Shown here: positions 9,658 to 40,750 of the stretch, piece by piece | Position numbering within the stretch: position 1 is the first letter of the stretch | Layout: each line of letters begins with the position of its first letter | IMG/VR virus record: IMGVR_UViG_3300045988_115158 | Span: 10,702 to 74,701 of that record | Strand: one strand, 5' to 3' | Length of the DNA: 64,000 bases | DNA from: a virus | Program-made: the position numbers and the translations under genes | Notes under the pieces: model-generated | What the model saw: the letters and a program-made list of their open reading frames with translations, nothing else | The model's database searches: none | What the model was told of the DNA's origin: nothing

Positions 9658-10845
9658 TTAGTTCAGCGTCACTTCTAGTCGTTTAGCTTTTTCCTCTATT
9701 TCTAGAGGGTTTAGCACAGGAACTTCTTGCTCTTGTTCAAGATTTACCCTGTTTAACGGAGTTTTAGGTACACCTAATTTGTACATAAGAGTGTAATGCA
9801 TATATGGAGTTATTAACTCTTTTAAGTGCTCAAAATCTGAAATACTTAGTCTAATTGTTTGATCTGAATGCTTAGACCAATGCAAGTTAAATTTTGTAAG
9901 CATTACTTCTTGAATAACTTTAATATCTGCATCTGTAAAACAGTTTGTACAAATTGTTATAGAACCATGGTCATAACATCCATCATCCATTATCCAAACT
10001 GCAATACCCAAAGGTTCAATGTTGTCTATAAGAGATTTATTAATATATTTTATTTTATTATTATGATATAATTTATTATAATAGGCTCCCATAGCATCAT
10101 TTACTTTAAAATGTGTATACAAACAAGCATACCATTTACCTTTTATATCATTAAAGTTATCTTTAAAAGATACTTTTCCACAAAATCTTCTTAATTTATT
10201 ATATTTCCAATAAAAATATTCCGCTTGTTTTAAACTATGTGCAAACATTCCAGTTCCACTTTCATCTCTAAGATACCCATCTCCTAATAAACATCCTAAG
10301 AATACTTGAAATTCCTCCGAAGATAATTCATTTAATCTATTTTTATTTTTATTTGGAGATAGCCCTAAAGATCTAGCATATTCTGAAATAGCACTATTAC
10401 TAGTATTTAATTCTTTAGCAATATCTACGTAAGTTAATCCTTGATTATATAAATCAATAAATTTATTTTCATCAAACTTTGGTTTATATTCAAAATTTGA
10501 ATCTAAATTTTTACGTATACGCCAGTTACGTACAGTAACATGATTTAATTGAACTATTCTAGCAATTTCAGAGTCATTTTTTCCTTCTTTATAAAGTTTA
10601 TACATTTCTTCATCATACTTTGCACGATTTTTATAAAGAGACCCATAAATACCCTGACCAATACTCGGAATATTAATTTTCTTTTCTTTAGGTTTTAAAA
10701 TATCTTTAGCACTTAAATTAAATTCAGATAATCTCTTTCGAACTACTGAGAGAGTTACTCCTAGTTTATCTGCTAATTCTTGTCTAGTATGGCAAGAATT
10801 AGCTGCTTCAATAAAATCACTTTTAGAAATTTCAATTTTTTTCAT
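9658..10845 (-). CDS. free-standing LAGLIDADG homing endonuclease with N-terminal HTH repeats
   Basis: LGCLLGDGYL and VWIMDDGCY motifs. Three sigma70-r4-like HTH repeats at the N-terminus. Located immediately downstream of the intron-containing helicase gene. Confidence 0.65.
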   Translation of the reverse strand: MKKIEISKSDFIEAANSCHTRQELADKLGVTLSVVRKRLSEFNLSAKDILKPKEKKINIPSIGQGIYGSLYKNRAKYDEEMYKLYKEGKNDSEIARIVQLNHVTVRNWRIRKNLDSNFEYKPKFDENKFIDLYNQGLTYVDIAKELNTSNSAISEYARSLGLSPNKNKNRLNELSSEEFQVFLGCLLGDGYLRDESGTGMFAHSLKQAEYFYWKYNKLRRFCGKVSFKDNFNDIKGKWYACLYTHFKVNDAMGAYYNKLYHNNKIKYINKSLIDNIEPLGIAVWIMDDGCYDHGSITICTNCFTDADIKVIQEVMLTKFNLHWSKHSDQTIRLSISDFEHLKELITPYMHYTLMYKLGVPKTPLNRVNLEQEQEVPVLNPLEIEEKAKRLEVTLN

Positions 10846-10910
10846 ATACTATAATTTTTAATATTATAGTAATATATTATCTAAAATGGATTATTATCAA
10901 AGCTTTTATT

Positions 10911-11558
10911 TTATTTTTTAAAAGTTATATAAAAATATTGCGTTAGTGTACCAGTTTCCTTGATATCCTCAACCATTGGTTCCATGAAAGCTTCATTTTT
11001 CTTTCTTTCCATGTTAGCTACACTTCTATTAGACTGCATAATGAAAAGAACAGATAAATCAGTTTTATTTCTAACAACTACAAGTTTATTAGCACATTCG
11101 TCAATCTCTCCTTTTTTAGTGCGTCCATTAGCAGGTATTAAAAGTCCCGCATGGTCAATTACAGCTAAAACAGTTTGTTTAGGATTATTAGGAGTATAAT
11201 GACCATCTTTAAAAGTGCCCTCTTCTTTAAGAACCTGCATAATTTCAGATATTACTTTATCAGAAGTATGGGCACCATCAAATATAATTAATTTTTTATA
11301 TACCTTTTCTAACCATTCATATCCTAATTTTACATATTCATATATATCATCTGGTAAAGTATAATCTTTACCTATAGAAAGTATCTGTTTAGCAGATATT
11401 CTAATATGATAAGTATCATACAAATACGTACTTAATAGTTTAGCTATAATAAAGAATTCTTTCATCTCAAGAGCAAAGAAGATAATCTTAATTTTATTAT
11501 CTTCTAGGTGCTCTTTTAATGGAATATAAACATATGAATATAGGGCTGCACTTGATTT
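10911..11558 (-). CDS. DnaB-family replicative helicase, exon 2 (from Walker A lysine onward)
   Basis: Frame extends upstream of the annotated Met as KSSAALYSYVYIPLKEHLEDNKIKIIFFALEM..VIDHAGLL..FIMQSNR. This matches DnaB GKT-FSLEM-DYLQLM-QLNR motif order. Confidence 0.6.
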   Translation of the reverse strand, partial: KSSAALYSYVYIPLKEHLEDNKIKIIFFALEMKEFFIIAKLLSTYLYDTYHIRISAKQILSIGKDYTLPDDIYEYVKLGYEWLEKVYKKLIIFDGAHTSDKVISEIMQVLKEEGTFKDGHYTPNNPKQTVLAVIDHAGLLIPANGRTKKGEIDECANKLVVVRNKTDLSVLFIMQSNRSVANMERKKNEAFMEPMVEDIKETGTLTQYFYITFKK

Positions 11559-11939
11559 CAGTTATGTTATCCTATAGGCTTTTTATCCTATAGTTCTATA
11601 GTTTCTTATTTACTATAGCTCGGCGTACATATTCACCTTCAGCATTGCCTGTTAAGGGCAGACCACTCTTGGAACTATTGTATTCTAACAGAAATAGTTC
11701 AGCTATTAACTAGACTATTTATTAGGCTCAAGTTCTACGCTCTACGATGCTACAGACTCTTTAGTTTCTGTAGTTATCTCGGTATTAGCATCACAGCCTT
11801 CACCGATATTGGTCTGAATTGGTCTATATGATTTCTCATATAGCTGGCGAAAATATATAAATTTCTCATATTTTCTATCTAAATATATAGTGCAATTATC
11901 ATATAAATATTTTATTATATTGTAAGAAATTTTTTAATC
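11559..11939 (-). other. group I-type self-splicing intron (ORF-less) inside the DnaB P-loop codons
   Basis: Separates ...ASSGIG (ending in T) from KSSAAL.... The intron ends in G. Multiple stop codons. Shares a conserved hairpin core with the intron at 13907-14255. Confidence 0.55.
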
Positions 11940-12103
11940 ACCAATACCTGAACTAGCAAACAACAATGTAAAAGTACTTTTAGTAAGTCCACCTGTTATT
12001 TCTTCTAGTTTAGGTAACCCTATACTTAATCCATGATTTCTTCCTAATCTACCGTTTTCTACTTCTTTCTTAAAACTCTCTAAACTCACAGAGTTGCAAC
12101 AGT
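11940..12103 (-). CDS. DnaB-family helicase, exon 1 segment (no start codon; -1 frame relative to 12086-12697 ORF)
   Basis: Reads ...NHGLSIGLPKLEEITGGLTKSTFTLLFASSGIG, the DnaB motif preceding Walker A. Opens right after a TAA. Confidence 0.5.
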
Positions 12104-12697
12104 ATTACAGTCCATTCCAGTGTCTCCATTCTTTAAAGCTTCAAGATCTTCCCATTTTTCATCTACAATAAATGTAGCTAGGCTATAATTAATAATACCA
12201 TTATCAGTATTAGCTTCCCAATCTAGTAAATCAATAATCTTTTTATGAAGTTCTTCATTCCAATGGATTTTCTTTCCATAAGTTCTATAAGCATCTTCAA
12301 GACTATTAAACTTTTTAGAAACACCTAGCATACTAGTTAAGCATCCATTAATATTTCTAAATCTAGGATAATGTTCTCTAAGTTCTTTTCCCATTTCAAA
12401 GGAACTCTTAGCTAAACATTTTAGGAAGTTTTTATTAAATGGTATCTCTTCAGGAACTAGTTTCATTCCTGGAATAATTTTATAACTTTTAAGGATAAGA
12501 CCTTTATCTTGTAAAGATTTAAGTATATCTATAAAACTTCCTACATACTTTTTATCAATAGCCAAATACCTACGAAGATAATCTTCTGAATAATCTTCTA
12601 TATAAGCATTTATAGCTTTAATAACAAATAATTCAGTAGGAGTAATATTATATTTTTCTAAAATTGTTATTTCTTCATCAATGTTTAAATCAAACAT
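12086..12697 (-). CDS. DnaB helicase N-terminal domain ORF (probably fused to downstream exons via frameshift or indel)
   Basis: 203-aa ORF ending 16 nt inside the exon-1 frame. The combined length (~450 aa) fits DnaB. Confidence 0.45.
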   Translation of the reverse strand: MFDLNIDEEITILEKYNITPTELFVIKAINAYIEDYSEDYLRRYLAIDKKYVGSFIDILKSLQDKGLILKSYKIIPGMKLVPEEIPFNKNFLKCLAKSSFEMGKELREHYPRFRNINGCLTSMLGVSKKFNSLEDAYRTYGKKIHWNEELHKKIIDLLDWEANTDNGIINYSLATFIVDEKWEDLEALKNGDTGMDCNTVATL

Positions 12698-12775
12698 ACA
12701 GTAATTCGGATAATTAAAAGTCTTCCATACTGTAATTAAGTTAATCTCTTTTCAGAGCGATATTAATACATAGAT

Positions 12776-13906
12776 TCAGAATCTAAAATCAAATTTAGGA
12801 ACTATCTTTTCACCTGGGGTAAAGTCTTTACCTTGTAACACTTTATCCAATTCTGATTCGTCTATAGTTATAAAAGAATCTCCCTTATGAGAATCATAAA
12901 ACCACTTAGTTTCTTGAGTTCTATTTAATACTATATTGAATATTTCTGCTGTCTTACCTTTTTCAAAGCGGATTGATCTTCCTCTCCGTTGACAAGCTCT
13001 AGTAGTTGAACTATCTAATCCAAATATAATAGCTACAGAAAGACCTTTTACATCAAGTCCTTCATCAGCTTTTTTTACTGTAGATAATAGAGTTATCTTT
13101 CCAGAGTTAAAATCTTCAATAGCTGTAGCACTTCTTTTCTTAGAAGTTCTACTAGAATATACAGTAGCATTAGGAATTTTTTCTGCCATTTTAATATTAT
13201 TAGCAAAAGTTATTATTTTTTTATCCTTTCTAGCTTCTATAATTTTCTTTACTATTTCAATTTTCTTTGGATGATTATTTATGAAAGCTTTTTTCTCATG
13301 CATAGTAGACCAAAATCTGATAGCATGATAATTTATACTTTGTAATACTTCAGACTTTTTATTAGGATCACTACACATAGAATCTCTTAGGAGTAGTTTA
13401 TTTCGCCAACCCATAGGACCAGCTAATTTATTAACTAACTCCCAAGAGAATCCGAAGAATTCAAAATGAGAAATGAATTCTTTATTTATTTTTTCATATT
13501 CTTCTAAATCATCAACATTTACTAAGACTAGATATTCTTTATATGGGCTAACCCAACCATTTGCAAGACAAGTATTAATATCAATAGTATCAATTACTGG
13601 ACAGTATTTTGCTAATATTTTATCTCTACCATCAAGACGCTCAAAAGTAGCTGTAAGACCTAAGATAAATTGGTATTTTACTACTTCAAATAATCTTACA
13701 AAAGTCTCAGCTGCATATCTATGCGCCTCATCCAGTACTAAAAGATCATATTTGACAGGATGTTTTATTACAGTGTTTATTATTTGTACATCACAACTTA
13801 ATCCTAGCCCATTAGAATCTATATGACCACACCATTGTTTTTGTAAAGTTTCTGTTGGCACAATTATTAGTACTCGATATTGTGGAAAGTGTTTTAACAC
13901 TGTTTT
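12776..13906 (-). CDS. SF2 DNA helicase (UvsW-like), exon 2
   Basis: Begins KTVLKHFPQYRVLIIVPT. LVLDEAHR (DEAH), GLTAT (motif III), QRRGRSIR (motif VI). Confidence 0.6.
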   Translation of the reverse strand, partial: KTVLKHFPQYRVLIIVPTETLQKQWCGHIDSNGLGLSCDVQIINTVIKHPVKYDLLVLDEAHRYAAETFVRLFEVVKYQFILGLTATFERLDGRDKILAKYCPVIDTIDINTCLANGWVSPYKEYLVLVNVDDLEEYEKINKEFISHFEFFGFSWELVNKLAGPMGWRNKLLLRDSMCSDPNKKSEVLQSINYHAIRFWSTMHEKKAFINNHPKKIEIVKKIIEARKDKKIITFANNIKMAEKIPNATVYSSRTSKKRSATAIEDFNSGKITLLSTVKKADEGLDVKGLSVAIIFGLDSSTTRACQRRGRSIRFEKGKTAEIFNIVLNRTQETKWFYDSHKGDSFITIDESELDKVLQGKDFTPGEKIVPKFDFRF

Positions 13907-19072: not shown

Positions 19073-19882
19073 TTAGATAACTTTAAACATTGTAACATTC
19101 TCAGGAAGATTGTCCCAGTCTTTATAAGAGTTAGTAAACCATACGTGATTAAAGTTTTCTGACAGATTCTTTATACCTTTAGGATTTACCATATGAGTGA
19201 CTACGATATTTAAACGTTCCTTAGGGATACCTAAAGCATTAAATGCTTTAGCAATACCACAAAAAGTTCCTCCACCATCACATAAATCATCAAGAATTAA
19301 TAATGGTTTATCACTAATTATTTCAGGATTGTCTATTTTAATCTCTAAGATTCTTCCAGTAGTTAAATCTCGAACTTTACTACAAGTAATTGCTGTACTA
19401 TTATATCTGAATTCATTTCTCTTTTCAGCTCCAGCATCTGGGAAAACTAATTGAAATTCTTTCCAAGTATTATTAGATGGATTCTTTTCAGCGTAAAGAG
19501 GCATGAATTTAGCTCCGAATCTAGGATCATAATAAACATCAGAATGAGGTTCTAAGATTTCAATAGTCTCTGCATTACAATTTTTTAATACATTTAAGAC
19601 TATTTTTAAAGTGAATGGTCTATTGAAAACCATTACTCGATCCATTCTCATACTCATTAAGTAATAGATATTTATTTTATATAGAACTTCATGTCTATCA
19701 AGGATATCTAAAACTTGCATAAGTATAAACAAGTCTTCGGCATTAGTAATTCTACATTTTACTAATACTTGTTCCTTATGACTAAATTCTTCTAATGAAA
19801 TTTGAACTTCCCCATCAGGGAATCTAGAGATAGAATATTTAATATCACTATCTTCTAGATGTACTAAATTTAATTGTTGCAT
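19073..19882 (-). CDS. ribose-phosphate pyrophosphokinase-like enzyme (PRPP synthetase family; candidate ADP-ribose pyrophosphokinase of an NAD+ reconstitution pathway)
   Basis: PRTase-type motif LLILDDLCDGGGT. Length and layout like Prs. Adjacent to NAMPT-like and macro-domain genes. Confidence 0.55.
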   Translation of the reverse strand: MQQLNLVHLEDSDIKYSISRFPDGEVQISLEEFSHKEQVLVKCRITNAEDLFILMQVLDILDRHEVLYKINIYYLMSMRMDRVMVFNRPFTLKIVLNVLKNCNAETIEILEPHSDVYYDPRFGAKFMPLYAEKNPSNNTWKEFQLVFPDAGAEKRNEFRYNSTAITCSKVRDLTTGRILEIKIDNPEIISDKPLLILDDLCDGGGTFCGIAKAFNALGIPKERLNIVVTHMVNPKGIKNLSENFNHVWFTNSYKDWDNLPENVTMFKVI

Positions 19883-20364
19883 AATTTATAAATATAAAGA
19901 GTTATTGTTGAATCATTAGCAAAAAGTTCTTGAAGCATAGGATAAACTACTCCATCCCAATCTCCTCCTGCTAATCCACATCCTAATTTATAAGGAATAC
20001 CTACTTCTGTTACTTCTTCGTCTTCACAAAAAGCTTTTAAATTTAACAAAGCTTTTTTAAGAGCATTATAATCAGTATGTCTATTTTCAAAAGGAGCTAC
20101 TGATTCAGTGAAAGAATATTCACCAAACAAATTAGCTACAAATTTAATAGGAAATTCTCCAGTTACACATATTTGACATTTACCTAATAAATCTTTAGAA
20201 TATTCAAAATTTTTACAGATATCAACATATTGTGTATATACAATATTCCATTTATTTTTAATAAACCTAGCTATACCTGCTCCCATTACTCCTAAACAGT
20301 TAGTTTGATGAGCTATAAGAGGTAAGTTTGATTGGAGTAAATCTCCATTAACAATTTTTATCAT
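19870..20364 (-). CDS. macro-domain protein (ADP-ribose binding/processing)
   Basis: GDLLQS..LIAHQTNCLGVMGAGIA macro-domain signature. Confidence 0.55.
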   Translation of the reverse strand: MIKIVNGDLLQSNLPLIAHQTNCLGVMGAGIARFIKNKWNIVYTQYVDICKNFEYSKDLLGKCQICVTGEFPIKFVANLFGEYSFTESVAPFENRHTDYNALKKALLNLKAFCEDEEVTEVGIPYKLGCGLAGGDWDGVVYPMLQELFANDSTITLYIYKLCNN

Positions 20365-20631
20365 ACTAATGTTGAATTTACACGTTCACGAATTTCAGAA
20401 AGAGAATATTCTCTTACTAATTCTCCATCTACAAAGACTGTTTTAAGACAACCTTGCAGTTCTGCATCCTTAGTCTGCTGGTCATAAGCGACATACTTAC
20501 CATTCTCTTCTTCAACTCTAATAAGACCTTTAAGAGAGTTCTTTGTTCCATCATCAGTCTTTGGGTGCTTATAGATTTCTATAAGTTTACCATTAATTAT
20601 ACAAGCAGTTGCTTTTACTGCAACATAAAAG
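20362..20631 (-). CDS. nicotinamide phosphoribosyltransferase-like (NadV/Namat-like), 3' exon
   Basis: No Met. Reads ..FYVAVKATACIINGKLIEIYKHPKTDDGTKNSLKGLIRVEEENG.... This is the NAMPT C-terminal conserved region. The frame opens right after a TAA. Confidence 0.55.
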
Positions 20632-21568
20632 CTTTTACTTTATCCCATTTTCTAGTCATATAGTCACAGTTATCTATGTACATATATAACTTTTCAAGGT
20701 CTTTCCTTGAAGCAATTTCTGCTTTTACATAACCTTTATTACTTGTTTTAATATTAAATCTTATTCCATATAATTCCTCTATTTTAGAGAATAATTCTAT
20801 AAATCTATCTTTCCAATTTGGATGTACTTCTATTCTTAGAGCAATAGAACCATGATTAGTTTCAGTTTGATTGCTAATCCATATAGACCCATCACCATCT
20901 ATTAAACCTATTAAAAAATAGATTAATAAATCTTTAGTATAGAATATATCCAATTTTGGAGGATTATACGTTTTTGGATTAGTATACTCTAAAATAGAGT
21001 ACCATTTTTCTTGAAATTTTTTATCTTGAATACGTAAATCAACAAACTCAGAATTTTCTTTAGAAAATCCTCCAGACTTAATTCTTAGTGTTATTTTACA
21101 TTTAAGATGTTCAGCTAACACCTTTAGATAATCTTTATCCTTGCCTGATAAACATATACATAATTCTCCTCTAGGAGATAAATGACCATCAGCCATAATA
21201 AAGCCCCACCAATAAGCCGATTTACTAGTAAGATTATCTAAAAATTTTAAAGAACCCTAACGCTTTCTTTCAACTTTAGAGGTTACTTTTAGTAATCTGG
21301 CTTTATTCATCATCTAAGAATAAGTTCTAGTAGGGAAAGTATTCAATAATGTTTCCATATCAGAATTTTCCCAATGAAACTTTAGAAGATCTTCCTCTTC
21401 ATTTGTCCATCTCTTATTCTTTTGGATACCAAGCTCTCTAGCTTTTTTCTATAAAGCTTTAACAGTTCTATTTAAACCAAACTCATCTATACATTCTTGT
21501 GCTGTATGGTCTAAATAAAAGGTATTCAAGATTTCAATTTCTTTTTCTGTCCAACTTGCACATTTCAT
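20615..21568 (-). CDS. LAGLIDADG homing endonuclease with Myb/SANT-like N-terminal repeats; contains 3 in-frame TAG codons
   Basis: Frame from ATG at 21568 reads WTEKEIEILNTFY.., WTNEEEDLLKFHW.., ..AYWWGFIMADGHL.., ..LIGLIDGDGSI. TAGs occur at three positions with no TAA or TGA. Confidence 0.55.
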
Positions 21569-21843
21569 ATTATATAAATTTAAGTAGTTTTAACTGTTTA
21601 AATATAATAATTTTCAGTAAAAGTTACAAGTAATAAAAGTTAAATTATGTTAATTTTTATGGACTATATCATAATCCCTATATTTAGGGATTCCGGATGC
21701 TGTAGGCTCACCGTAGTGTCCTTAGTCTCTGAACCTTCCACAGTCTTCCCTGTGGCTCGGCTGCTGATTAAGAATTAACAAACTCTTCCCAGCAATTCTT
21801 CCGGTTATTCGATATGCATTACTGCATAAAGGGGCTCGCAGTT
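20632..21843 (-). other. group I-type intron in the NAMPT-like gene, carrying a LAGLIDADG endonuclease ORF and a GC-rich structured core (21660-21810)
   Basis: Exon ends ..RDSLGF(tt) and resumes (c)FYVAVKATA. U precedes the 5' splice site and G ends the intron. The intron core is markedly GC-rich relative to the genome. Confidence 0.5.
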
Positions 21844-22424
21844 AACCCAAGAGAATCTCTACTCTTAAACTGATAAGTATAAGATCCAATACCAAGAACA
21901 AGATTACAAGCTGCCATATGAGCATTTTCTAATCGAGCATAGATATCACGCTGACGCTCTAGAGTGATAGAATCTCCATAGAGCAACCCAACCTTGGTGC
22001 TTGGATAACGATAATCGTTCACAGTAGTATTCCATCCAAAGATTTTACCTAGCATATAATATGCTCCATAATACTGACCTTCAGATACTTCTACATAATG
22101 ACTTTCATCATCATCCATAAATGGATTGAAATCACAATAGTACTTGCCTTCCTTCATTGCAGTGTGGTAATGAGGATTTGTACGAAGACCACAAATAATA
22201 TCCACTGGGTCACCACTATCAGGACGAATTACTACTCGACCATCACGCTTCATAATGTCTTTTTTCAGACGAGGGAGAATACGTTCTACCACTCTCCAAA
22301 AATCATAAGTATCACTAACTATAGATACAATTCCAATAGGATATAATTCATTTATCAATCTTTTAATTGACAATAATTCTCCAATAAGTTTTTTGTCCTC
22401 TTCAGACGCTTTTTGAATTTTCAT
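21819..22424 (-). CDS. NAMPT-like enzyme, middle segment (ends in intron-derived residues)
   Basis: IVSIVSDTYDF and VVIRPDSGDP NAMPT/NAPRTase motifs. The last ~8 residues (LTASPFMQ) are intron read-through. Confidence 0.55.
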   Translation of the reverse strand: MKIQKASEEDKKLIGELLSIKRLINELYPIGIVSIVSDTYDFWRVVERILPRLKKDIMKRDGRVVIRPDSGDPVDIICGLRTNPHYHTAMKEGKYYCDFNPFMDDDESHYVEVSEGQYYGAYYMLGKIFGWNTTVNDYRYPSTKVGLLYGDSITLERQRDIYARLENAHMAACNLVLGIGSYTYQFKSRDSLGLTASPFMQ

Positions 22425-22500
22425 ATTTATACGCTTTTTTCAAATTATCAATAGCCCATAAAGGCTGTAAATTTTTATAACAGAAACACTCTTTTTGCTA

Positions 22501-23343
22501 TTAGAACAAATTTTTGTCTCCATTTATATCAATATATCCAATTAATTTACCAAAATCATCTAAGATTATTTCTTCTACATTATCTTCAAAATCACTAATA
22601 GTAGAGCAAGCCACTGAATGTTCCGAAGCCGGGACAGTTGCAGCTACAAGTTCTTCAGTAACATCTGCATTGTAATAATGCTCTACTGCTTCAATAGCAG
22701 GAATTGTTTCACTACCACAGAATGAAGTCATATGAGCCATACCTGAAATAATAGCAGCATCAAGTCCTGCCATACCTCTCATTGAGAAATCGTGACAAGA
22801 GAAACCTAGATTTACATCTTCTGGGAATCCAGTCTTTCTAGCATGTTCCATAAGTCTCTTTTTATAGAGACGAGCACTTGTTGCAGAAGTACAAGGAAGC
22901 CATAGAGTACAACTAATTAAAGTTTCCAAGTAATTAGTCAACCAAAAGAAGTCCGGAAGAGTGTTCTTAATAGTCATCATAGGTACTCTTATAGGACAGA
23001 TAGAACCTTCAGGAAGAGCTTTAATTTCAATAGGAAGATACCCCAAATCATAAAGTTCTTCAATATGCTTTGTCCCAACCTGGTTAAGGTCTACAAAGTT
23101 ACCTACACGATAAGCAAATTGCTTAATAGCTTCTTCCTTAGGAAGAGCAAACCATTTATTAAATTCCTCTATCAAATACTTCTTTACAAAGTACTGAATA
23201 CCAAATACTACAGAACCTTCTGTAGCTTCTGGGAAGTAACGATTACTTCTAGGAGTCCAGTTACTATAGACCATTTGTGTACCCTCTGGGTACATACGAT
23301 GATGACCAAGCTTATAGCCATCAGTTGCATTAATAATTTCCAT
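22501..23343 (-). CDS. NAMPT-like enzyme, N-terminal segment (separate ORF, 76-nt gap to next segment)
   Basis: N-terminal TDGYKLGHH motif. 280 aa + 201 aa + 3' exon add up to NAMPT length. Confidence 0.55.
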   Translation of the reverse strand: MEIINATDGYKLGHHRMYPEGTQMVYSNWTPRSNRYFPEATEGSVVFGIQYFVKKYLIEEFNKWFALPKEEAIKQFAYRVGNFVDLNQVGTKHIEELYDLGYLPIEIKALPEGSICPIRVPMMTIKNTLPDFFWLTNYLETLISCTLWLPCTSATSARLYKKRLMEHARKTGFPEDVNLGFSCHDFSMRGMAGLDAAIISGMAHMTSFCGSETIPAIEAVEHYYNADVTEELVAATVPASEHSVACSTISDFEDNVEEIILDDFGKLIGYIDINGDKNLF

Positions 23344-26304: not shown

Positions 26305-26695
26305 TAAGTACCCCTTTGGTACTTACAAATTAAATAATAAGATTAAATAATTGGAGGCATGTATAATCTACAATACTGATTAGCATACCAAATCCAACCC
26401 TTCTTAAATGCTTTTAAAGTTCTTTTTAAAATTTTCATCATAATAAATCAAATTTAAAGTTTAACTTATAAAATATCTAGGAGGAGAGTTTAAAAATTTA
26501 AGAATCCCAGGTAAATCACCCCTGTTAGAGACATGGTCTCTATTTTTATTATTTAGGATTCTATAGGAATGCAAAAAACGTCGAACCATTCCAGTTCGTA
26601 GGTTCTACGACACCTAATAGGCGAGTATGCATCGTTGAGAGGCACCCTATAAGTTACGTTGCTCCTGTAACTAGTATTCTAGAGCTTTATCATAG

Positions 26696-26773
26696 TGTGA
26701 GATGTGGGAATCAAACCCACGCAAGCCTTCACATTGGAAGTGTGATGTGCGCCTTCAACTACACTAATCTCAC
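26696..26773 (-). tRNA. tRNA-Gly(UCC), extended variable region
   Basis: Acceptor gtgagat/atctcac. Anticodon arm tcaca-cuUCCaa-tgtga. T-arm gtggg-tttgatt-cccac. Confidence 0.55.
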
Positions 26774-26785
26774 ATTGTTTAATAG

Positions 26786-26859
26786 TGGAGCGTAGGAGAT
26801 TCGAACTCCTAAGAATGCCTGCGTGCAAAGCAGGTGCTGACCATTTGAGCCGACGCCCC
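26786..26859 (-). tRNA. tRNA-Ala(UGC)
   Basis: Acceptor ggggcgt/acgctcc. Anticodon arm cctgc-tuUGCac-gcagg. T-arm aggag-ttcgaat-ctcct. Confidence 0.55.
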
Positions 26860-26869
26860 AAATTGGAGA

Positions 26870-27346
26870 TTACTCTCCAGTTAATTGTTTTATTTTAAGT
26901 TTAGCTTGTGTTAATTCATATATTAAATCAGATATAGTTTTTTTATTATCTTTAAGATGTTTTTTGAGAGCTTTAATAGCTAATTTCATGCTATTAAAGT
27001 TCTTTAAATTATTTGCTATGGATTCTAATTCTTTAAAAGACTTAGTATCATCAAACAAAGATATATTAACTTTAGCTTGTAATTCTTTAATTTTAAGATT
27101 CTGTTTTTCAATCTCATTTTCTAAAGACTGAATCTTATTATTTAAGGAAGCTATAGTCGATCCATCTTCTAATTCATCTATATAGGATTCTAATTCTCCG
27201 ATTTTTTGTTCTAAACCAGCATAATGCTTTTTTCTTTCAGCATCATACTCTTTAAACCTATTTATTTTGCTTTTTAAAACAGCTATAATAAAATCCTTTT
27301 TATCATAAAAGTTTGCGTCAGATTGATAATTAAAAGTTTTTTTCAT
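26870..27346 (-). CDS. coiled-coil protein
   Basis: 158-aa ORF rich in heptad-like E/K/L repeats. Confidence 0.45.
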   Translation of the reverse strand: MKKTFNYQSDANFYDKKDFIIAVLKSKINRFKEYDAERKKHYAGLEQKIGELESYIDELEDGSTIASLNNKIQSLENEIEKQNLKIKELQAKVNISLFDDTKSFKELESIANNLKNFNSMKLAIKALKKHLKDNKKTISDLIYELTQAKLKIKQLTGE

Positions 27347-27366
27347 ATTATTTATTTTTTAACTAG

Positions 27367-27438
27367 TTGTGGGTATTGGACTCGAACCAATGACCGTTTG
27401 CTTATGAGACAAACAAGCTACCACTGCTACAACCCACG
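27367..27438 (-). tRNA. initiator-type tRNA-Met(CAU)
   Basis: C1xA72 mismatch (cgtgggt / acccaca + a). D-arm and T-arm nearly identical to bacterial tRNA-fMet. Anticodon loop cuCAUaa. Confidence 0.6.
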
Positions 27439-27447
27439 ATATTAAAG

Positions 27448-27519
27448 AGCTTCAAGTAGGATTTGAACCTACGACCCGCATTTTACAAGAATGCTGCACT
27501 ACCACTGTGCTATTGAAGC
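27448..27519 (-). tRNA. tRNA-Thr(UGU)
   Basis: Clean cloverleaf. Acceptor gcttcaa/ttgaagc. D gcac-agtggta-gtgc. Anticodon gcatt-cuUGUaa-aatgc. T gtagg-ttcaaat-cctac. Confidence 0.7.
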
Positions 27520-27664
27520 TTAAATAAAGGCGAATATGGCATTAGACGGGCGAACTATCGTGACCATATTCTAATAATACATTGAGCTATCAGGCATACT
27601 CGTGGATCGCCACCGCTACCTCTAACAACCGCCTAGTTAAATGCTAGGTCCTCTCTATTATTTG

Positions 27665-27741
27665 CGGAATATAAGGGACTCGAACCCTTAGTTTTACTAG
27701 AGTGACAGTCTAGTTCCCTTACCAACAGGGCTTAATACTCC
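27665..27741 (-). tRNA. tRNA-Asp(GUC)
   Basis: Acceptor ggagtat/atattcc. Anticodon ctaga-cuGUCac-tctag. T aaggg-ttcgagt-ccctt. Confidence 0.55.
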
Positions 27742-27812
27742 AGGCGCCTCTTGTGTACACATTTCTTTTCGAGAAGGTAGCTAACCTTAGAAATAAGAGG
27801 CATATATTATTG

Positions 27813-27893
27813 CGCCTAGACTAGGATTCGAACCTAGGAACCTTTCGGGGCAAGTTAACAGCTTGCTGCCGTTGACCACTTGGCTATCTAGAC
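27813..27893 (-). tRNA. tRNA-Asn(GUU) with ~12-nt variable region
   Basis: Acceptor gtctaga/tctaggc. Anticodon gcaag-cuGUUaa-cttgc. T ctagg-ttcgaat-cctag. Confidence 0.5.
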
Positions 27894-37116: not shown

Positions 37117-37189
37117 TGGGCTCGCCCGGGATTGAACCGAGAATAAGAGATTATGAGTCTCCCGTTTTAACCGATTGAACTACAAGCCC
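37117..37189 (-). tRNA. tRNA-Met or tRNA-Ile2 (CAU anticodon), elongator type
   Basis: Acceptor gggcttg/cgagccc. Anticodon ggaga-cuCAUaa-tctct. T ctcgg-ttcaatc-ccggg. Confidence 0.55.
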
Positions 37190-37389
37190 GAGTAGGTACT
37201 TCTAAGAATAAATAAGAACTCAGTACCTATATTGAGGAATCCGTCGTTGGATCAGTTCTACGCAATTTAGGCTTTTTAAGAAGCCTTAACTTACTAAAGT
37301 TTTCGCACAATTTTGATAAGAGCTCTACTTTCACAAGCAAAGCTCTTTTATTTTTAACAACTTATAAATTACAATAATGATAGAAAAAG

Positions 37390-37461
37390 GAAATGCGGAC
37401 AGATTTGAACTGTCGACCTTCTACTCAACGATAGACGCTCTAACCACTGAGCTACACATTT
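37390..37461 (-). tRNA. tRNA-like gene with non-canonical anticodon loop (6 or 8 nt, cgttga / tcgttgag)
   Basis: Perfect acceptor, D-arm (gctc-agtggtta-gagc) and T-arm (gacag-ttcaaat-ctgtc). The anticodon arm tctat-cgttga-gtaga is one nt short of canonical. Confidence 0.45.
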
Positions 37462-38283
37462 CAATTTATACTAGTATATTATATAGTTTTATTTAAAACG
37501 CATACTACTTTCGCAAGCAGTATGAGTTAATGTGTAAGTCATTTTATTGACTTATCAACTCAACTACAAGAAATTCATCAATTTTCACAAATTAATAATT
37601 AATATGTCGCTTAGACGGGATTCGAACCCGTAAGACCATTCCTGGTCAAGGGATTTTCCTACTACACTTGCTTTTATACAAGCTAACTTAAATAAAGGGA
37701 TTCGAACCCTTAATCCTCAAGAGATATTTAATGATGACTTTAGAGGCGCTTCCGTCAATCTGCTGCCGTATACCAATTCCGCCATATTTAAGTTATTGTA
37801 GTCTGGACTATTTTATTACCTTATCAATTAACTTCGAAGTAAGGAATTAGGTTTTACCTCTCTCAATGAGCGTCTCCTTTTTTACATAATGCATTACTAT
37901 TATAACCTTATTACTAAGGATGAAGTCTAAACCATTCCTTTTAATTAACTTAGGTATCTCCTCTATAGTCTCTACACATTTATGCTGTAACACTCCAATT
38001 TACATTTAAGATAGATTAGCGTTCTATCACAATTTAGCTCGTCACCACCAAAACCTATGTCACCATAAGTGAGGCTTCTGTCGCAAGTTAATTAGATTTC
38101 TGAATACTGCTTCTATAATCATTACTCTGCTTCTTACACAGATGCTAACCTTTTTACAATTAGTAATTAACTTGTTTAATTAGGGAGATTCTACTTCTAT
38201 TATTTCTAATGGAGCACTCAAATTCACCATTACTGGTGTTCCAAAAGTCCCTCGTGTATCCCAGTTCCACCACTAAGCGATAA

Positions 38284-38313
38284 AGCAACTAATTATCTGC
38301 TAGTTGCCAACAA
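38284..38313 (-). terminator. hairpin gcaactagcagataattagttgc (repeat copy 1)
   Basis: Identical 30-nt element also at 40721-40750. Lies downstream of a minus-strand gene end. Confidence 0.35.
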
Positions 38314-38347
38314 TATTTATTTTATAAATCCTATAACTATTATGGTA

Positions 38348-38707
38348 TTACAGTTGTTTTAACATATTTGTAGCTACGTGTAATGAAATATTCATAGTTG
38401 TATGAATATCATCATTTAACTTTAAGACATATGTATTGTTTTCATCATTCTTTCTAGTTATCTCAGATATGTATTTATGATTTATTAAAAATCCTTGTGT
38501 TGCAAGAATAAAATTAATACATAAAACACGTGAAATATTTTTTAATGAACAACACACAATAATACTATTGCCATGAACATCTATTATAGTACTATATTTA
38601 CCAGATGTTTTTATACATACAATGTCATTTATGTTTATCTGTCTGTACTCTCGTCCCTTAAACACTAAGAATGTATTAGAGTCAATTTGTATTGTTTTTA
38701 CTTCCAT
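38348..38707 (-). CDS. hypothetical protein
   Basis: 119-aa ORF. Confidence 0.4.
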   Translation of the reverse strand: MEVKTIQIDSNTFLVFKGREYRQININDIVCIKTSGKYSTIIDVHGNSIIVCCSLKNISRVLCINFILATQGFLINHKYISEITRKNDENNTYVLKLNDDIHTTMNISLHVATNMLKQL

Positions 38708-38712
38708 ATCTT

Positions 38713-39102
38713 TTAACCCATAATAAAACGAGCCTCTACAATATTTTCAGGATGATAAATAGTTTTAGTTAATCCTTTCATTGCCCATTTCACAACATCA
38801 GAATGTTTAACTCCACTTTTAAGTTCATGGTAAAACATTAAATCATAAGCTTCTCCACTTTTAAAAGTTACTTTGATTTTAAATGTAGGTTTTTCATCAT
38901 TTCTAATAAGTTCATCCATTTCTTCATCAGTTACCATGTAACTGAACAGAGGATTAGAAAGATGTTCTTTTTTGTATTTCTTTTCAAGTTCAGCTAAGTT
39001 TAACTTTGCACACTTGAGTACATGTTTACAACCAAATTTCTTAGCACTTTCTATTTGTGCTATTAAATTGGTTTTACTAATAAAATAATCTTGTCTTGTC
39101 AT
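38713..39102 (-). CDS. hypothetical protein
   Basis: 129-aa ORF. Confidence 0.4.
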   Translation of the reverse strand: MTRQDYFISKTNLIAQIESAKKFGCKHVLKCAKLNLAELEKKYKKEHLSNPLFSYMVTDEEMDELIRNDEKPTFKIKVTFKSGEAYDLMFYHELKSGVKHSDVVKWAMKGLTKTIYHPENIVEARFIMG

Positions 39103-39291
39103 AATTTATCTATAATTAATGTGTTAATAATCTATTTAAATAATAGGCAATTTTCACTGGTTATATTTAAACTATTCCATTGTCCTCAGTTATCTAACGT
39201 TCTTTCTCTTTTTAACCCAAATGATTAATTTTAAGGTAATTACGCTATTTAATAGAGTTACTGAGAGTTGTTTAGTACCTATTAAAATTAG

Positions 39292-39363
39292 AAGGATATA
39301 GAGGAGTCAAACCTCTTCTTTTGGGGTCAAATCCCAACGTGGCTGTCGTTACACCAATATCCC
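39292..39363 (-). tRNA. tRNA-Gln(UUG)
   Basis: Acceptor gggatat/atatcct. Anticodon ttggg-auUUGac-cccaa. T agagg-tttgact-cctct. Confidence 0.6.
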
Positions 39364-39378
39364 TTGTATCTAATGAAG

Positions 39379-39466
39379 CGGAGAAAGAAGGATTCGAACC
39401 TTCGAGCCATGTAATATGACTAACACCTTAGCAGGGTGCCACTTTCGACCACTCAGTCATTTCTCC
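39379..39466 (-). tRNA. tRNA-Ser(GCU), class II long variable arm
   Basis: 88 nt. Acceptor ggagaaa/tttctcc. Anticodon gcacc-cuGCUaa-ggtgt. T gaagg-ttcgaat-ccttc. Confidence 0.6.
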
Positions 39467-39477
39467 AATAAAGCTTC

Positions 39478-39491
39478 CTATCTTCACAGAC
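39478..39491. repeat. conserved motif CTATCTNTCACAGAC in a hairpin loop (copy 1 of 4)
   Basis: Copies at 39478-39491, 39664-39677, 43071-43085 and 43155-43169. Each lies between variable inverted-repeat arms. Confidence 0.5.
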
Positions 39492-39846
39492 AAGAAGCCT
39501 AACAACTCTTTAACGTTATAAAGTCCGCTGACTTCATATTTTAAACATTAATTGTATTAGTTTTTTAAATATGGAAGAGTAGCACTAGCGATGCTCGAAA
39601 TCGCCTTTTAACTTTGAAAAAGTTACGTCCTGACCAGCTAGACGATAGTGCCAAGTAGATTCTCTATCTTCACAGACTGAGAATCTCGTGTATTACAAAT
39701 GAATACTTTTAATAAATTAAAAATTAATGGTGCTCCCTGACAGTACTGACCTGTCTTCCCGAAATTAAAAGTTTCGTGCTCCACCTTAAAGCTTAGAGAG
39801 CTAATTTATAATCTTATTTTGCATAAGAATTTTATTCTTGTATTAG

Positions 39847-39916
39847 TGGAGATATGTGGAATCGAACCACAATCTCGGGATTTTTACCGTGCTCTAACCT
39901 TCTGAGCTATATCTCC
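39847..39916 (-). tRNA. tRNA-like gene, anticodon arm degenerate (loop taaaaat)
   Basis: Good acceptor (ggagata/tatctcc), D-arm and T-arm (tgtgg-ttcgatt-ccaca). Anticodon stem only 3-4 bp. Identity unresolved. Confidence 0.35.
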
Positions 39917-40024
39917 ATAGCCCACATTTCTATAAAGGAGAATAGTGGTAACACCTACCTATACTAATAAATTTATTAGTCAGGATTTATCCAAACACAC
40001 TAACAATATATCAAATTAAATTTA

Positions 40025-40108
40025 TACGGTAGAAAGGATTCGAACCAATGACCTTCTCGAAATGACCTATTATAAAAAGAGATGCTATAACCACTGAGCT
40101 ACTACCGT
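40025..40108 (-). tRNA. tRNA-like gene (84 nt), anticodon region unresolved
   Basis: Acceptor acggtag/ctaccgt and D-arm are clear. T region attggttcgaatccttt is shared with the 40539-40619 element. Confidence 0.3.
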
Positions 40109-40163
40109 AAGTACTAGTTTATATCGGAAAACTAGTAAAACGTTAACACATTATTATGGAAAC

Positions 40164-40514
40164 TTAAAAGCCAAATGAAAACATGGTATCTGCGGAAGTA
40201 CTAAGAGTTACGTAAGGAATTTTATTTCTTATTGTAATAAATACAACAAAGCGTCTTCCTGTATTAACCTCTCCACAATTATGGATTTCTACTCCATCCT
40301 TCATTTCAGAAGAGTATATTTTTAATACCATTTTACCAAACTTACTATTACTAAAAGTAATAGTTTTTCTAGCTTCATTATATACTACTGAAGTTTTAAT
40401 GTAAAATGGGTCACTCCATTCACCATCTTGATAAACAGTGATAGAACCATAATTAAACGCATGAGCTATTGTAGTTAATACAATAAAACTCATTAATAAA
40501 ATAATCTTTTTCAT
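40164..40514 (-). CDS. secreted hypothetical protein (start moved to MKKIILLMSF... to avoid tRNA-like overlap)
   Basis: Signal peptide MKKIILLMSFIVLTTIAHA. The ORF track extends to 40562 but that overlaps the tRNA-like gene. Confidence 0.45.
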   Translation of the reverse strand: MKKIILLMSFIVLTTIAHAFNYGSITVYQDGEWSDPFYIKTSVVYNEARKTITFSNSKFGKMVLKIYSSEMKDGVEIHNCGEVNTGRRFVVFITIRNKIPYVTLSTSADTMFSFGF

Positions 40515-40538
40515 ATTACTCAATCTTTTTAATGTTAG

Positions 40539-40619
40539 TACGGAGTAAAGGATTCGAACCAATATAACCTCTCTATGAATTGTGGAAATGAGGTGCTCTA
40601 GCCATTAAGCTAACTCCGC
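40539..40619 (-). tRNA. tRNA-like gene with enlarged anticodon loop (~11 nt)
   Basis: Acceptor gcggagt/actccgt. D gctt-aatggcta-gagc. Anticodon region cctcat-ttccacaattc-at(a)gagg. Confidence 0.3.
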
Positions 40620-40626
40620 ATGTGTG

Positions 40627-40711
40627 TGAGGGAAGAGGGACTCGAACCCTCAAGAGCATAATGCTAACAGTTTAGAAGACTGTGACGCTTCCAATTACGC
40701 GCTATTCCCCC
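40627..40711 (-). tRNA. tRNA with UCU anticodon (Arg by code) and unusual 15-nt variable arm
   Basis: Acceptor gggggaa/ttccctc. D gcgc/gcgt. Anticodon acagt-cuUCUaa-actgt. Variable tagcattatgctctt. T gaggg-ttcgagt-ccctc. Confidence 0.5.
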
Positions 40712-40720: not shown

Positions 40721-40750
40721 TGCAACTAATTATCTGCTAGTTGCCAACAA
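40721..40750 (-). terminator. hairpin gcaactagcagataattagttgc + T-run (repeat copy 2)
   Basis: Followed on the minus strand by atttttatttg. Confidence 0.45.

Follow-up and report, generated by a model that had tools for sequence, protein, structure and literature searches.

The 64,000-nt stretch of viral DNA analyzed here (IMG/VR record IMGVR_UViG_3300045988_115158, positions 10,702 to 74,701; hereafter the window) carries an array of tRNA genes, several of which combine an intact tRNA body with an anticodon arm that departs from the standard form. We read the array as a remodelled set of tRNA-like units that are processed from longer transcripts and some of which do not decode, with a probability of about 0.6. 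In four genes, designated A, B, C, and D (Table 1), the acceptor, D, and T arms are intact and the combination of a 5-bp anticodon stem with a 7-nt loop is impossible: A has a 6-nt loop, B and C carry 9–11 and 13 additional nucleotides, respectively, and D lacks three. Compensatory changes maintain the helices of A, of a tRNA-shaped module within an intron (N), and of two further genes, K and E. An earlier note on this DNA, made from the letters alone, had described a list of these genes as non-canonical in architecture, and this description holds for every gene that it named.

ARAGORN called 13 tRNAs in the window and Rfam 15, all on the minus strand, and N was added by Rfam at relaxed thresholds. 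The Rfam tRNA E-values of the flagged elements range from 1e-3 to 1e-10, and the RF00005 scores of A, B, C, D, E, and N (Table 1) all lie above the gathering threshold of 29 bits. GenBank MT835539.1 and dozens of independent gut contigs from IMG/VR and ENA contain the same sequences or alleles of them, and the elements recur in at least 25 independent assemblies. The flagged elements are almost certainly tRNA-derived genes, co-oriented with small open reading frames (ORFs). We defined a canonical decoder by a 5-bp anticodon stem, a 7-nt loop, U33, and a purine at position 37. E, K, the spliced tRNA-Leu, and the Glu, Ser, Gln, and Met genes have this form; A (5 bp + 6 nt), B (4–5 bp + 16–18 nt), C (4 bp + 20 nt), D (3 bp + 8 nt), and N (two helices and a 16-nt loop) do not. 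In default mode the standard finders miss K, B, D, and N and label others as 'Stop', 'Phe', or 'Trp' incorrectly.

Gene A was reported by ARAGORN as 'tRNA-???' with a 2-nt anticodon. Its D and T arms are canonical, its acceptor is extended by an eighth pair, G-1:C73, and its anticodon arm consists of a 5-bp stem (UCUAU/GUAGA) and a 6-nt loop (CGUUGA). The earlier note had given this loop as 6 or 8 nt beside otherwise perfect arms; the 6-nt loop stands, and 8 nt is seen only in a few alleles elsewhere, where 6 nt plus one extra pair can be drawn equally well. We recovered 26 distinct alleles of A and aligned 21. All five pairs of the anticodon stem change on both sides among the aligned alleles with 100% pairing, a level of covariation reached by no shuffle, and the loop measures 6 nt in 20 of the 21. 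The whole arm is 16 nt long, or 18 nt in a few alleles, and a 17-nt arm is found in none of the 26. The G-1:C73 pair is present in 19 of the 21 aligned alleles, with G-1 set within four different upstream contexts, and neither G-1 nor C73 occurs in any other tRNA of the array. Such a pair is a hallmark of bacterial tRNA-His. A GUG anticodon is present in 0 of the 26 alleles.

The loops of A (CGUUGA, CGUAGA, CGUAAA, UGUAGA, UAUAAA, UUAAAA, UUAAAG, AUAAAA, UAGGUC, UAGGUA, UGAUAA, and AUAUGA) resemble nucleotides 33–38 of ordinary anticodon loops, with a purine at position 5 and A at position 6, and the YGUWGA group is one step away from the UGUGGA of phage tRNA-His. Because one constant body is combined with an apparent 'anticodon' that wanders across Asn, Tyr, Leu, and Ile, conserved decoding by A is unlikely. 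We consider it highly probable that A is a selected RNA with a loop of other than 7 nt, the stem-loop of which would be kept as a hairpin and diversified between otherwise near-identical genomes. All 12 distinct loops contain UAA, UAG, or UGA at varying positions, a post hoc observation on loops that are related by descent. No kissing complementarity between the loop of A and those of B, C, N, or K was found by eye.

Gene B has normal acceptor, D, and T arms, the T stem (AUUGG/CCUUU) containing two U·U pairs. Its anticodon stem, CCUC/GAGG, encloses 18 nt, of which the first seven are Gly-like (UUUCCAC) and about nine are extra. An approximately 11-nt loop had been proposed here; its non-canonical character is upheld, and 11 nt is the excess over the Rfam model, not the length of the loop. 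Twelve alleles in 25 contigs keep all pairs, one T-run varies in length (T2/T3), and none of the 12 lacks the extra nucleotides. Gene C has the same T arm as B (AUUGG-UUCGAAU-CCUUU), a 17-mer that is common in unrelated phage tRNAs, and the window copy shows a D-stem mismatch (GCTC/TAGC). Ten alleles of C in 29 contigs have loops of 16–20 nt that differ in a T3/T4/T5 run, and the identity called for the gene shifts with this length polymorphism. In allele L278 (loci and alleles bear L numbers), AATCCCATT replaces AATAGGTCATT. This allele breaks the fold behind the ARAGORN call 'tRNA-Stop(tta)' for C as well as the stem of an alternative ARAGORN reading with a long variable arm, and both were rejected. 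The UUA readings of B and C hinge on an arbitrary placement of an intron.

A bulge-helix-bulge motif, taken as a 4-bp helix with a 3-nt bulge on either side at the exon–intron junctions, could not be drawn for B or C in any allele, and L040 and the window differ in the pairable bases. Scans of IMG/VR with the 5' halves of B and C returned the same clade and chance matches, with no insertion-free allele and no distant homologue, and a GenBank phage search with B and C as the sole queries returned only MT835539.1. The possibility that the inserts of B, C, and N are group I intron leftovers found no support in short BLAST comparisons with the collected introns; for N it was rejected, the insert being a covarying hairpin.

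Gene D is a derivative of tRNA-Phe(GAA), with the arm CGG-UAAAAAUC-CCG. The degenerate anticodon arms noticed earlier in C and D were both borne out, that of D measuring 14 nt only. The slot of D is occupied by a canonical 73-nt tRNA-Phe(GAA) in 8 alleles (15 contigs) and by the 70-nt deletion form, or a 69-nt derivative of it (L040/L290), in 7 alleles (10 contigs); L272 has a 72-nt intermediate. The deletion forms show additional mismatches or changes in the 3' strand. Decay is probably under way in D and, in part, in C.

The region 37607–37700 had been noted for a T arm without an adjacent 5' half and, in view of an intron-split suppressor, had been considered a possible split or processed tRNA. 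Its first part, 37607–37657, is indeed a 3' exon, and ARAGORN in intron mode pairs it with a 5' half upstream (Table 1). The 5' exon supplies acceptor strand CGCUUAG, a Leu-type D arm, anticodon stem strand AGGGA, and C32, U33, and U34; the 3' exon contributes a 16-nt variable arm (GACC/GGUC) and the other acceptor strand. Splicing after U34 would yield the loop CUUAAAA and a computed ligated product of 86 nt with a long variable arm, A73, and a Leu-type D loop, in which GGGACUU is joined to AAAAUCCC. Intronless sister alleles have AGGGA-CTTAAAA-TCCCT, identical to the predicted ligated exons. Seven tRNA alleles share this anticodon arm, an eighth match to the pattern (L040/L290) not being a tRNA, and the variable arm is identical in the intronless L006/L037. 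The intronless alleles therefore fix the splice junction and the Leu identity. The gene is thus a tRNA-Leu(UAA), as guide pairing and intronless alleles both show, and not a suppressor; this label and the 'Phe(gaa)' of ARAGORN arose because the junction was placed one base off. TTA is the commonest Leu codon (247 of 507).

Comparison among homologues provided the evidence on the nature of the intron. The P1 guide stands just before a conserved hairpin; GAGU faces exons ending in ACUU, and GGAU faces exons ending in UUCU, with a U·G pair at the splice site, so that the guide covaries with the exon across tRNA hosts. We found 31 distinct homologues of the tRNA-Leu intron, 347–619 nt in length, and aligned 30 of them. 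The alignment showed a covarying P2, a P7 in which GACTAT/ATAGTC covaries to GGACAT/ATGTTC, the presence of P3, a P10 in which three A-U pairs link the intron to the 3' exon, and a terminal G; the 3' end of the window intron reads ...GUAGUAGG. A 15-mer of the intron, GTAGAATCTCCCTAA, occurs at about 100 IMG/VR loci, mostly just downstream of a tRNA 5' half, and intron-homologous pieces are present in Lak-B and in the primase genes of crAss-like phages. Against this assignment, the Rfam model Intron_gpI (RF00028) gave no match over the region, nor at E ≤ 10 on a 741-nt interval, and the assignment therefore rests on manual and comparative evidence. The Rfam group I model is narrow. On these sequence features, the tRNA-Leu(UAA) gene spanning 38279–37607 very probably contains a group I intron, and we infer that its 587 nt would self-splice. 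What seems to be a second core of group I type, GGTGCAGAGACTATACGG...TATAGTCC, lies upstream in the Lak-B1 homologue of the tRNA-Leu gene (L002, approximately 1390–1895), within its D-loop region; this tRNA gene would then contain two introns.

The tip of the intron helix P9 carries the 105-nt module N. The earlier note had located a T arm without a 5' half at 37700–37790; the element proved to be complete, with a 7-bp acceptor (TTAAATA/TATTTAA), a Leu-like D loop, and a canonical T arm. In place of an anticodon arm it has two stacked helices, AGAU/AUCU and UGACG/CGUCA, closed by a 16-nt loop. The window copy has one mismatch in the second helix (a C·A at C38:A58). Across 16 alleles, 99.7% of positions in the helices are paired, and two pairs have changed on both sides, with compensation seen in the T stem and in the inner helix. 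N occurs in intron P9, free-standing after an intronless tRNA-Leu, and on a long hairpin, and in other members of the intron family the P9 tip holds unrelated inserts. Because it is also found free-standing and on the long hairpin, N is an independent unit and not a part of the ribozyme.

Two genes with standard anticodon loops were also unusual. Gene E, called Arg(tct) by ARAGORN, combines the canonical 7-nt loop CUUCUAA with a class-II-like variable region of 15 nt (4-bp stem AGCA/TGCT), the D loop AAUUGGAAG, and A73, and the UCU anticodon beside a hairpinned variable arm reported before is correct. Its arm has the class II form (a stem-loop of at least 10 nt), and its anticodon is not one of those for Leu, Ser, or Tyr. 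Among 10 alleles, four of them divergent, eight pairs have changed on both sides, two of these in the variable arm, and the anticodon loop is invariant; UCU is present in 14 of 14 alleles. The same scaffold (D arm ACGUAAnUGGAnG plus the long arm) carries ACG, another Arg anticodon, in other gut phages. AGA is the dominant Arg codon (127 of 216) and encodes the arginines of helicase motifs II and VI. The Escherichia coli Arg identity set includes C35 and A20; E has UCU with C35 and the D loop ..GGAAG with A20. The codon usage and the two Arg anticodons found on the scaffold argue that E is most likely a functional Arg decoder, although its Leu-like D loop and A73 might permit mischarging by LeuRS. 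The expectation that a long variable arm does not belong on tRNA-Arg, voiced earlier, follows the textbook and fails here, an Arg decoder being the simplest reading. Long variable arms are also found on Thr, Gln, Glu, Pro, Met, Asn, and Ala tRNAs in the phages sampled.

Gene K was overlooked by ARAGORN and Rfam, failing to reach even E ≤ 1 in the latter, and was read from the sequence. It forms a full cloverleaf with the 7-nt loop CUUUUAA and a non-canonical T-loop, GUCAGUA, in which G54 and G58 replace T54 and A58. CCA is encoded in the window copy and not in all relatives. In nine alleles, 99.5% of the pairs are formed, and three pairs have changed on both sides.

Relative to MT835539.1, the flanks of the array are about 98% identical and individual tRNA slots are swapped or remodelled. 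One tRNA-Gln is replaced by another, Met by an Ile(UAU), the intron-containing Leu by an intronless one, D by a normal Phe, and A by another 6-nt-loop allele; a 91-nt long-arm tRNA(CCA) is present in one and absent from the other. This last gene, observed at L001 (4160–4250) and about 20 related loci, is 91 nt long (84 nt in L189/L196) and has a long variable arm, G73, a Ser-like D arm, and the anticodon CCA (Trp); its slot in the window, at approximately 39820–39846, is a deletion. In nine relatives, B and C are 86–99% identical and the adjoining spacers 98–100%, and the alignments place the differences in B and C mostly in the anticodon arm. The normal decoder tRNA-Glu changes its stem by compensation and keeps its 7-nt UUC loop. 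That the anticodon arms vary faster than the adjoining non-coding DNA speaks for diversifying selection or for recombination between old alleles, and not for uniform neutral decay.

Further remodelling was noted within the array. The Glu slot of L029 contains a tRNA-Glu with 19 extra nucleotides in its anticodon arm, the Ser slots of L024/L280, L028, and L029 have deletions of 7–16 nt in the D or variable arm, and internal deletions occur in the E slot of L031 and the C slot of L010; the array is indel-prone. Another tRNA-like family, GTCAGTTAGCTCAG...ATTGGTTCGAATCCTTTACTGAC, from unrelated IMG/VR phages (L003, L013, L015, L016, L030, L033, L042, and L049) has 'anticodon' loops of 4–13 nt between alleles. 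A constant tRNA body with an anticodon arm of variable length is therefore found outside this clade as well.

We propose that the array and its small ORFs would be transcribed as polycistronic precursors, from which RNase P and RNase Z would release each tRNA-shaped unit, with the intron self-splicing to give tRNA-Leu. E, Leu, Glu, Ser, Gln, Met, and probably K would serve as decoders. A, B, C, and N would be released as stable tRNA-shaped RNAs without normal triplet decoding, and the value for which they are retained would be the tRNA body; since no standard anticodon can be presented, they would likely act through that body. We lean slightly toward the view that these four are non-decoders. 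Two roles may be envisaged. The first is punctuation that defines mRNA ends, B and C bracketing a 116-aa ORF such that B ends 25 nt before its start codon and C begins 55 nt after its stop codon. The second, suggested by the fast turnover of the anticodon arms, is mimicry, in which the RNAs would engage enzymes that bind tRNA bodies or anticodon loops, such as host anticodon nucleases; for A, engagement of HisRS through G-1:C73 is a further possibility. An anti-defence role of this kind is put forward tentatively. Equally speculative is the proposal that A represents a new class of phage tRNA mimic, derived from tRNA-His and with an obligatorily non-7-nt loop, which might serve as a non-decoding decoy for, or an inhibitor of, host defence nucleases directed at the anticodon, or else as a doublet-reading frameshift tRNA, N, B, and C being further non-decoding tRNA-shaped members that would also move into introns.

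Several findings weigh against this picture. The functional steps are inferred from sequence, and no RNA ligase, repair enzyme, or nuclease gene was found in the window: Pfam and PHROG scans of approximately 50 ORFs revealed no RNA ligase, kinase-phosphatase, CCA-adding, or nuclease gene. The allele families were collected with acceptor and T-arm patterns, by which a 'constant body' is built in, although the loci reached via other anchors (L006, L028, L031, L032, and L037) agree with the pattern-collected alleles. All of the alleles were drawn from a single clade, the genomes of which are closely related. The spacers match the tRNA bodies in their degree of conservation, and conservation alone is therefore no proof of selection; the comparison of bodies with spacers is uninformative as a selection test, and the aggregate table is confounded by partial locus coverage. 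The same clade contains deletion variants of Ser, E, and C, and decay is therefore part of the picture. Single changes break the D stem of C in three alleles, including the window copy. Finally, B has a loop start of Y-U-N-C-C-A in all 12 alleles, with U, C, or G as the wobble N, followed by 8–9 conserved extra nucleotides; an invariant NCC-A in which the wobble base alone varies is the pattern expected of a working tRNA-Gly.

Some of these observations fit a view in which B, C, and D, and possibly A and N, are tRNA pseudogenes in a turning-over array, without a function of their own and kept since the clade is young, as the equal conservation of genes and flanking spacers implies. D, as a 3-nt deletion of a canonical tRNA-Phe with later mismatches, conforms to such a history, and the broken D stems and length-polymorphic loop of C and the other deletion alleles are in line with it. 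Against this view stand the compensatory double changes in A, N, K, and E, the absence of a 17-nt arm from all 26 alleles of A, the retention of all pairs by B in its 12 alleles, and the concentration of variation in the anticodon arms, well above the spacer background, which uniform neutral decay would not produce. Plain pseudogene status is unlikely for A, N, K, and E, and for B, C, and D we regard it as doubtful.

The Gly-type loop of B introduces a different alternative, that the aberrant genes are real decoders which reach the codon by unconventional routes. The 9–13-nt insertions of B and C would then be small introns cut by an unknown endonuclease and resealed by a ligase, A would decode, for example, by doublet reading, by programmed -1 frameshifting, or with the 31:39 pair opened, and D would read UUU with AAA. 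The loops of A, resembling nucleotides 33–38 of normal loops, carry GUU, GUA, UAA, UAU, or GAU, which match the commonest AT-rich codons, and the G34A change of D agrees with the bias toward TTT (180 vs 76). Precedents exist in Lak phages, which have conserved tRNA insertions at 37/38 together with a T4-type RNA ligase (PMC6784885), and in the yeast mitochondrial tRNA-Thr(UAG), which has an 8-nt loop and evolved from tRNA-His (PMC7609411). Neither a bulge-helix-bulge nor another conserved splice motif accompanies the insertions, however, their lengths are polymorphic (T2/T3 runs in B and loops of 16–20 nt in C), the putative anticodon of C differs with each length variant, and no ligase or endonuclease gene was seen in the window. 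In A, the 31:39 pair covaries (UG, GC, CG, and AU) and hence is formed, and a single G-1:C73 body with an 'anticodon' ranging among five amino-acid families would cause misincorporation. We consider unconventional decoding unlikely and retain the reading of a remodelled array of tRNA-like units, some of them non-decoding.

A system that recodes stop or sense codons, for which an ochre suppressor (40025–40108 or the split gene) and a long-armed tRNA inserting Leu at AGA would be the candidates, is highly improbable. It could draw on the ARAGORN label 'tRNA-Stop(tta)' for C, and for B in intron mode, and on the recoding of TAG and TGA by crAss-like phages (PMC7886860). The Leu-like D loop, A73, and long variable arm of E also recall the nematode nev-tRNAs. 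These nev-tRNAs are charged with Leu. The split gene, however, is Leu(UAA), and the UUA reading of C needs the fold that is broken in L278. TAA is the main stop codon and terminates 12 of the 16 large ORFs examined, the ORFs being open under code 11, and AGA encodes invariant helicase arginines, while the scaffold of E is also found with the Arg anticodon ACG. Assembly or sequencing errors, to which some differences in homopolymer runs (T3/T4/T5 in C) might be ascribed, can be set aside almost entirely, given that the same or allelic forms come from many independent studies and assemblers (MT835539.1, IMG/VR, and ENA) and that the stems carry compensatory changes.

The split gene closely parallels the tRNA-Leu(UAA) group I intron of cyanobacteria and plastids. 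The classical intron is inserted at U34/A35. The phage intron shares this host tRNA and insertion point, P1 (ACUU/GAGU with U·G), P10, the P3/P7 core, and the terminal G; the likeness is one of features. It differs in its length (587 nt against approximately 250 nt), its AT-richness, its failure to match RF00028, its tRNA-shaped P9 insert, and its distribution, the family also occurring in other phage tRNAs and in crAss-like primase genes. Group I introns occur in crAss-like phages (PMC7886860). In Lak megaphages, 'enigmatic' tRNA introns of 79–141 nt at 37/38 with nested tRNA-like units were described (Devoto et al. 2019; PMC6784885, Table S6). Lak phages are likewise gut phages with apparently a common Prevotella host, and the window contains DNA segments 84–96% identical to theirs. 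Their anticodon-loop insertions affect Gly(UCC), Phe, Thr, and Tyr genes, and their nested units, the anticodon arm of which is a long hairpin, resemble module N (PMC6784885). B and C differ in having 9–13 extra nucleotides only and no nested unit, and N lies in a group I intron or stands alone rather than directly in an anticodon loop.

A long hairpinned variable arm, A73, and a Leu-type D loop relate E to class II tRNAs and to the nematode nev-tRNAs, which bear Gly or Ile anticodons, and the anticodon of E is not one for Leu, Ser, or Tyr; unlike in the nev-tRNAs, the codon evidence and the UCU/ACG scaffold point to Arg and not to mischarging with Leu. Gene A shares the G-1:C73 pair with tRNA-His and departs from it in lacking GUG, in having a loop of 6 nt as opposed to 7 or 8 nt, and in the unconserved sequence of that loop; the yeast mitochondrial tRNA-Thr(UAG) is a comparable His-derived tRNA with a non-7-nt loop (PMC7609411). 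Van den Berg et al. (2023; PMC10264068) interpreted changes in the anticodon loops of phage tRNAs as a means of evading host tRNA nucleases. Those tRNAs, and the PARIS and retron escape tRNAs, resemble the present genes in that variation is focused on the anticodon arm and allele cassettes sit in near-identical flanks. They keep a 7-nt loop and decode, whereas here the loop length changes and no nuclease is known for this host or phage. The species 1 and 2 RNAs of phage T4 are small, stable, processed RNAs from the T4 tRNA cluster, of unknown function. They are likewise tRNA-like and encoded in a tRNA cluster, but have no sequence relation to the elements described here and are not cloverleaves with altered anticodon arms.

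Several components are thus already known: both tRNA-Leu(UAA) genes and crAss-like phages contain group I introns, Lak phages have enigmatic tRNA insertions and a tRNA within an intron, and loop changes occur in phage tRNAs. Apparently new to the literature are the His-like A family, with an arm that is never the canonical 17 nt and is held by covariation, the N module in an intron P9 loop and free-standing, and the Lys-like K with its G54/G58 T-loop; the long-arm tRNA-Arg scaffold also appears to be new.

Table 1. Elements of the tRNA array and its surroundings (window coordinates).
Feature	Position	Strand	Remarks
E, tRNA-Arg(UCU)	40627-40711	-	ARAGORN Arg(tct); Rfam 34.7 bits
B, tRNA-shaped	40539-40619	-	Rfam 46.6 bits; 11-nt insertion relative to model
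Small ORF, 116 aa	40164-40513	-	ATG at 40513; signal-peptide-like N-terminus
C, tRNA-shaped	40025-40108	-	Rfam 47.2 bits; stem TCTC/GAGA, 20-nt loop
D, tRNA-Phe(GAA) derivative	39847-39916	-	3-nt deletion (nt 30-32) and G34A; 54.4 bits
K, tRNA(UUU), Lys-like	39728-39801	-	Read from sequence; overlooked by ARAGORN and Rfam
tRNA-Glu(UUC)	39580-39652	-	Canonical; ARAGORN and Rfam
tRNA-Ser(GCU)	39379-39466	-	Canonical; ARAGORN and Rfam
tRNA-Gln(UUG)	39292-39363	-	Canonical; ARAGORN and Rfam
tRNA-Leu(UAA) 5' exon	38245-38279	-	ARAGORN intron mode, coordinates, intronless alleles
Group I intron (putative), 587 nt	37658-38244	-	Between U34 and A35
Intron guide GAGU	38216-38219	-	
Intron P2 hairpin	38196-38213	-	
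Intron P3	38183-38188 with 37956-37961	-	ATCTCC with GGAGAT
Intron P7	37965-37970 with 37805-37810	-	GACTAT with ATAGTC
Intron P9 stem	37785-37794 with 37685-37694	-	
Intron terminal G	37658	-	
N, 105-nt tRNA-shaped module	37687-37791	-	Tip of intron helix P9; Rfam 33.0 bits
tRNA-Leu(UAA) 3' exon	37607-37657	-	A35 A36 A37 A38, UCCCU, T arm ACGGG/CCCGU, A73
A, tRNA-shaped	37390-37462	-	Rfam 53.5 bits; ARAGORN 'tRNA-???', 2-nt anticodon
tRNA-Met(CAU)	37117-37189	-	Canonical; final gene of array
29-nt repeat TTGTTGGCAACTAGCAGATAATTAGTTGC, copy 1	40722-40750	-	10 nt upstream of E
29-nt repeat, copy 2	38285-38313	-	5 nt upstream of tRNA-Leu 5' exon
GNRA-capped long hairpins flanking A	37501-37524 (GCGA), 37320-37345 (GUGA)	-	
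GNRA-capped hairpin before tRNA-Glu	39657-39686	-	

Two kinds of potential signals accompany the array. A 29-nt repeat with 7-bp inverted arms (GCAACTA N9 TAGTTGC) is present in two exact copies in the window, where none is expected by chance; copy 2 sits just downstream of an ORF with a LytTR domain (38348–38707), and 28–29 of the 29 positions of the repeat are kept in relatives. It is a candidate promoter or operator, or a 5' leader hairpin of the array. Hairpins of 10–13 bp with GNRA caps lie just upstream of A, Met, Glu, and Ser (the last at approximately 39480–39510 on the minus strand), are kept in relatives, and are candidate processing or termination signals. The 116-aa ORF between B and C has no Pfam or PHROG family match. 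Directly downstream of tRNA-Gln, a 169-nt non-coding stretch (39114–39282, minus strand; also L293, 1201–1369) shows 94% identity with Prevotella phage Lak-C1, in which a tRNA-Gln likewise stands about 115 nt upstream of it, and 87–96% identity with Lak-A and with the crAss-like phages cr124_1 and cr7_1; the predicted fold of this shared element of about 170 nt does not surpass those of shuffled sequences (z = -0.11).

A second tRNA cluster at 26695–27893 (minus strand) also has atypical members. ARAGORN assigned variable regions of 11 nt to Asn, 7 nt to Gly and Ala, and 6 nt to Asp, which agrees with the longer variable regions mentioned earlier for other tRNAs of the window. The tRNA-Asn(GUU) is 82 nt long, its 11-nt variable region forming a mini-hairpin; the 79-nt tRNA-Gly(UCC) gave a partial Rfam match of 33.7 bits only; and the 78-nt tRNA-Asp has a 6-bp anticodon stem as drawn by ARAGORN. 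No permuted or trans-split tRNA was found.

The window is AT-rich (27–36% G+C), with nearly all genes in its first 47 kb (1–47 kb) on the minus strand. Its only close GenBank relatives are MT835539.1 and MT835492.1, unannotated 'Bacteriophage sp.' scaffolds from human feces, and contigs with the same tRNA array in IMG/VR and ENA human-gut assemblies measure 94–225 kb. The best annotated relatives of the primase ORF (6036–7046) are crAss-like phages, at 31–35% amino-acid identity; no hallmark capsid or RNA polymerase gene lies within the window. The phage appears to be a large uncultured human-gut phage of the crAss-like assemblage, and the array a fast-evolving tRNA island within it. The Zeta group of crAss-like phages has intron-rich genomes of 145–192 kb (Yutin et al., PMC7886860), and the LAGLIDADG endonuclease ORFs and split helicase and nicotinamide phosphoribosyltransferase (NAMPT) genes of the window are among the features that would fit this group; a comparison with the accession numbers published for it was negative. 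Because pieces of the tRNA region are 84–96% identical to Prevotella Lak megaphages and to crAss-like phages, the sequences suggest that the host belongs to Prevotella or the Bacteroidales and that phages infecting it together have exchanged DNA.

Interrupted protein genes were observed at two places, both on the minus strand. At 20615–23343, the NAMPT gene is in two pieces (22501–23343 and 21819–22424) beside a LAGLIDADG endonuclease ORF (20615–21196), with a macro-domain ORF (19870–20364) and phosphoribosyltransferase-like ORFs nearby; this looks like an NAD-salvage module split by an intron. At 9658–13900, a LAGLIDADG_2 endonuclease ORF with helix-turn-helix domains (9658–10845) adjoins helicase fragments (DnaB_C-like, 10911–11465; ResIII/Helicase_C, 12776–13900), which suggests additional introns in replication genes.

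Phage tRNAs are now viewed as weapons against host defences that cleave tRNAs, and the known examples are ordinary decoders with point changes. The locus described here offers conserved tRNA bodies in which the anticodon arm is shortened, lengthened, or replaced, as well as a tRNA-shaped unit inside a putatively self-splicing intron. These are candidates both for tRNA mimics that do not decode and for tRNAs that punctuate phage mRNAs. The putative group I intron provides a mechanism for one case of the intron-interrupted tRNA genes of gut phages, and the long-armed tRNA-Arg scaffold bears on the uncoupling of class II architecture from aminoacylation identity. The genes that tRNA finders miss or mislabel bear, in turn, on claims of suppressor tRNAs and recoding in crAss-like phages.

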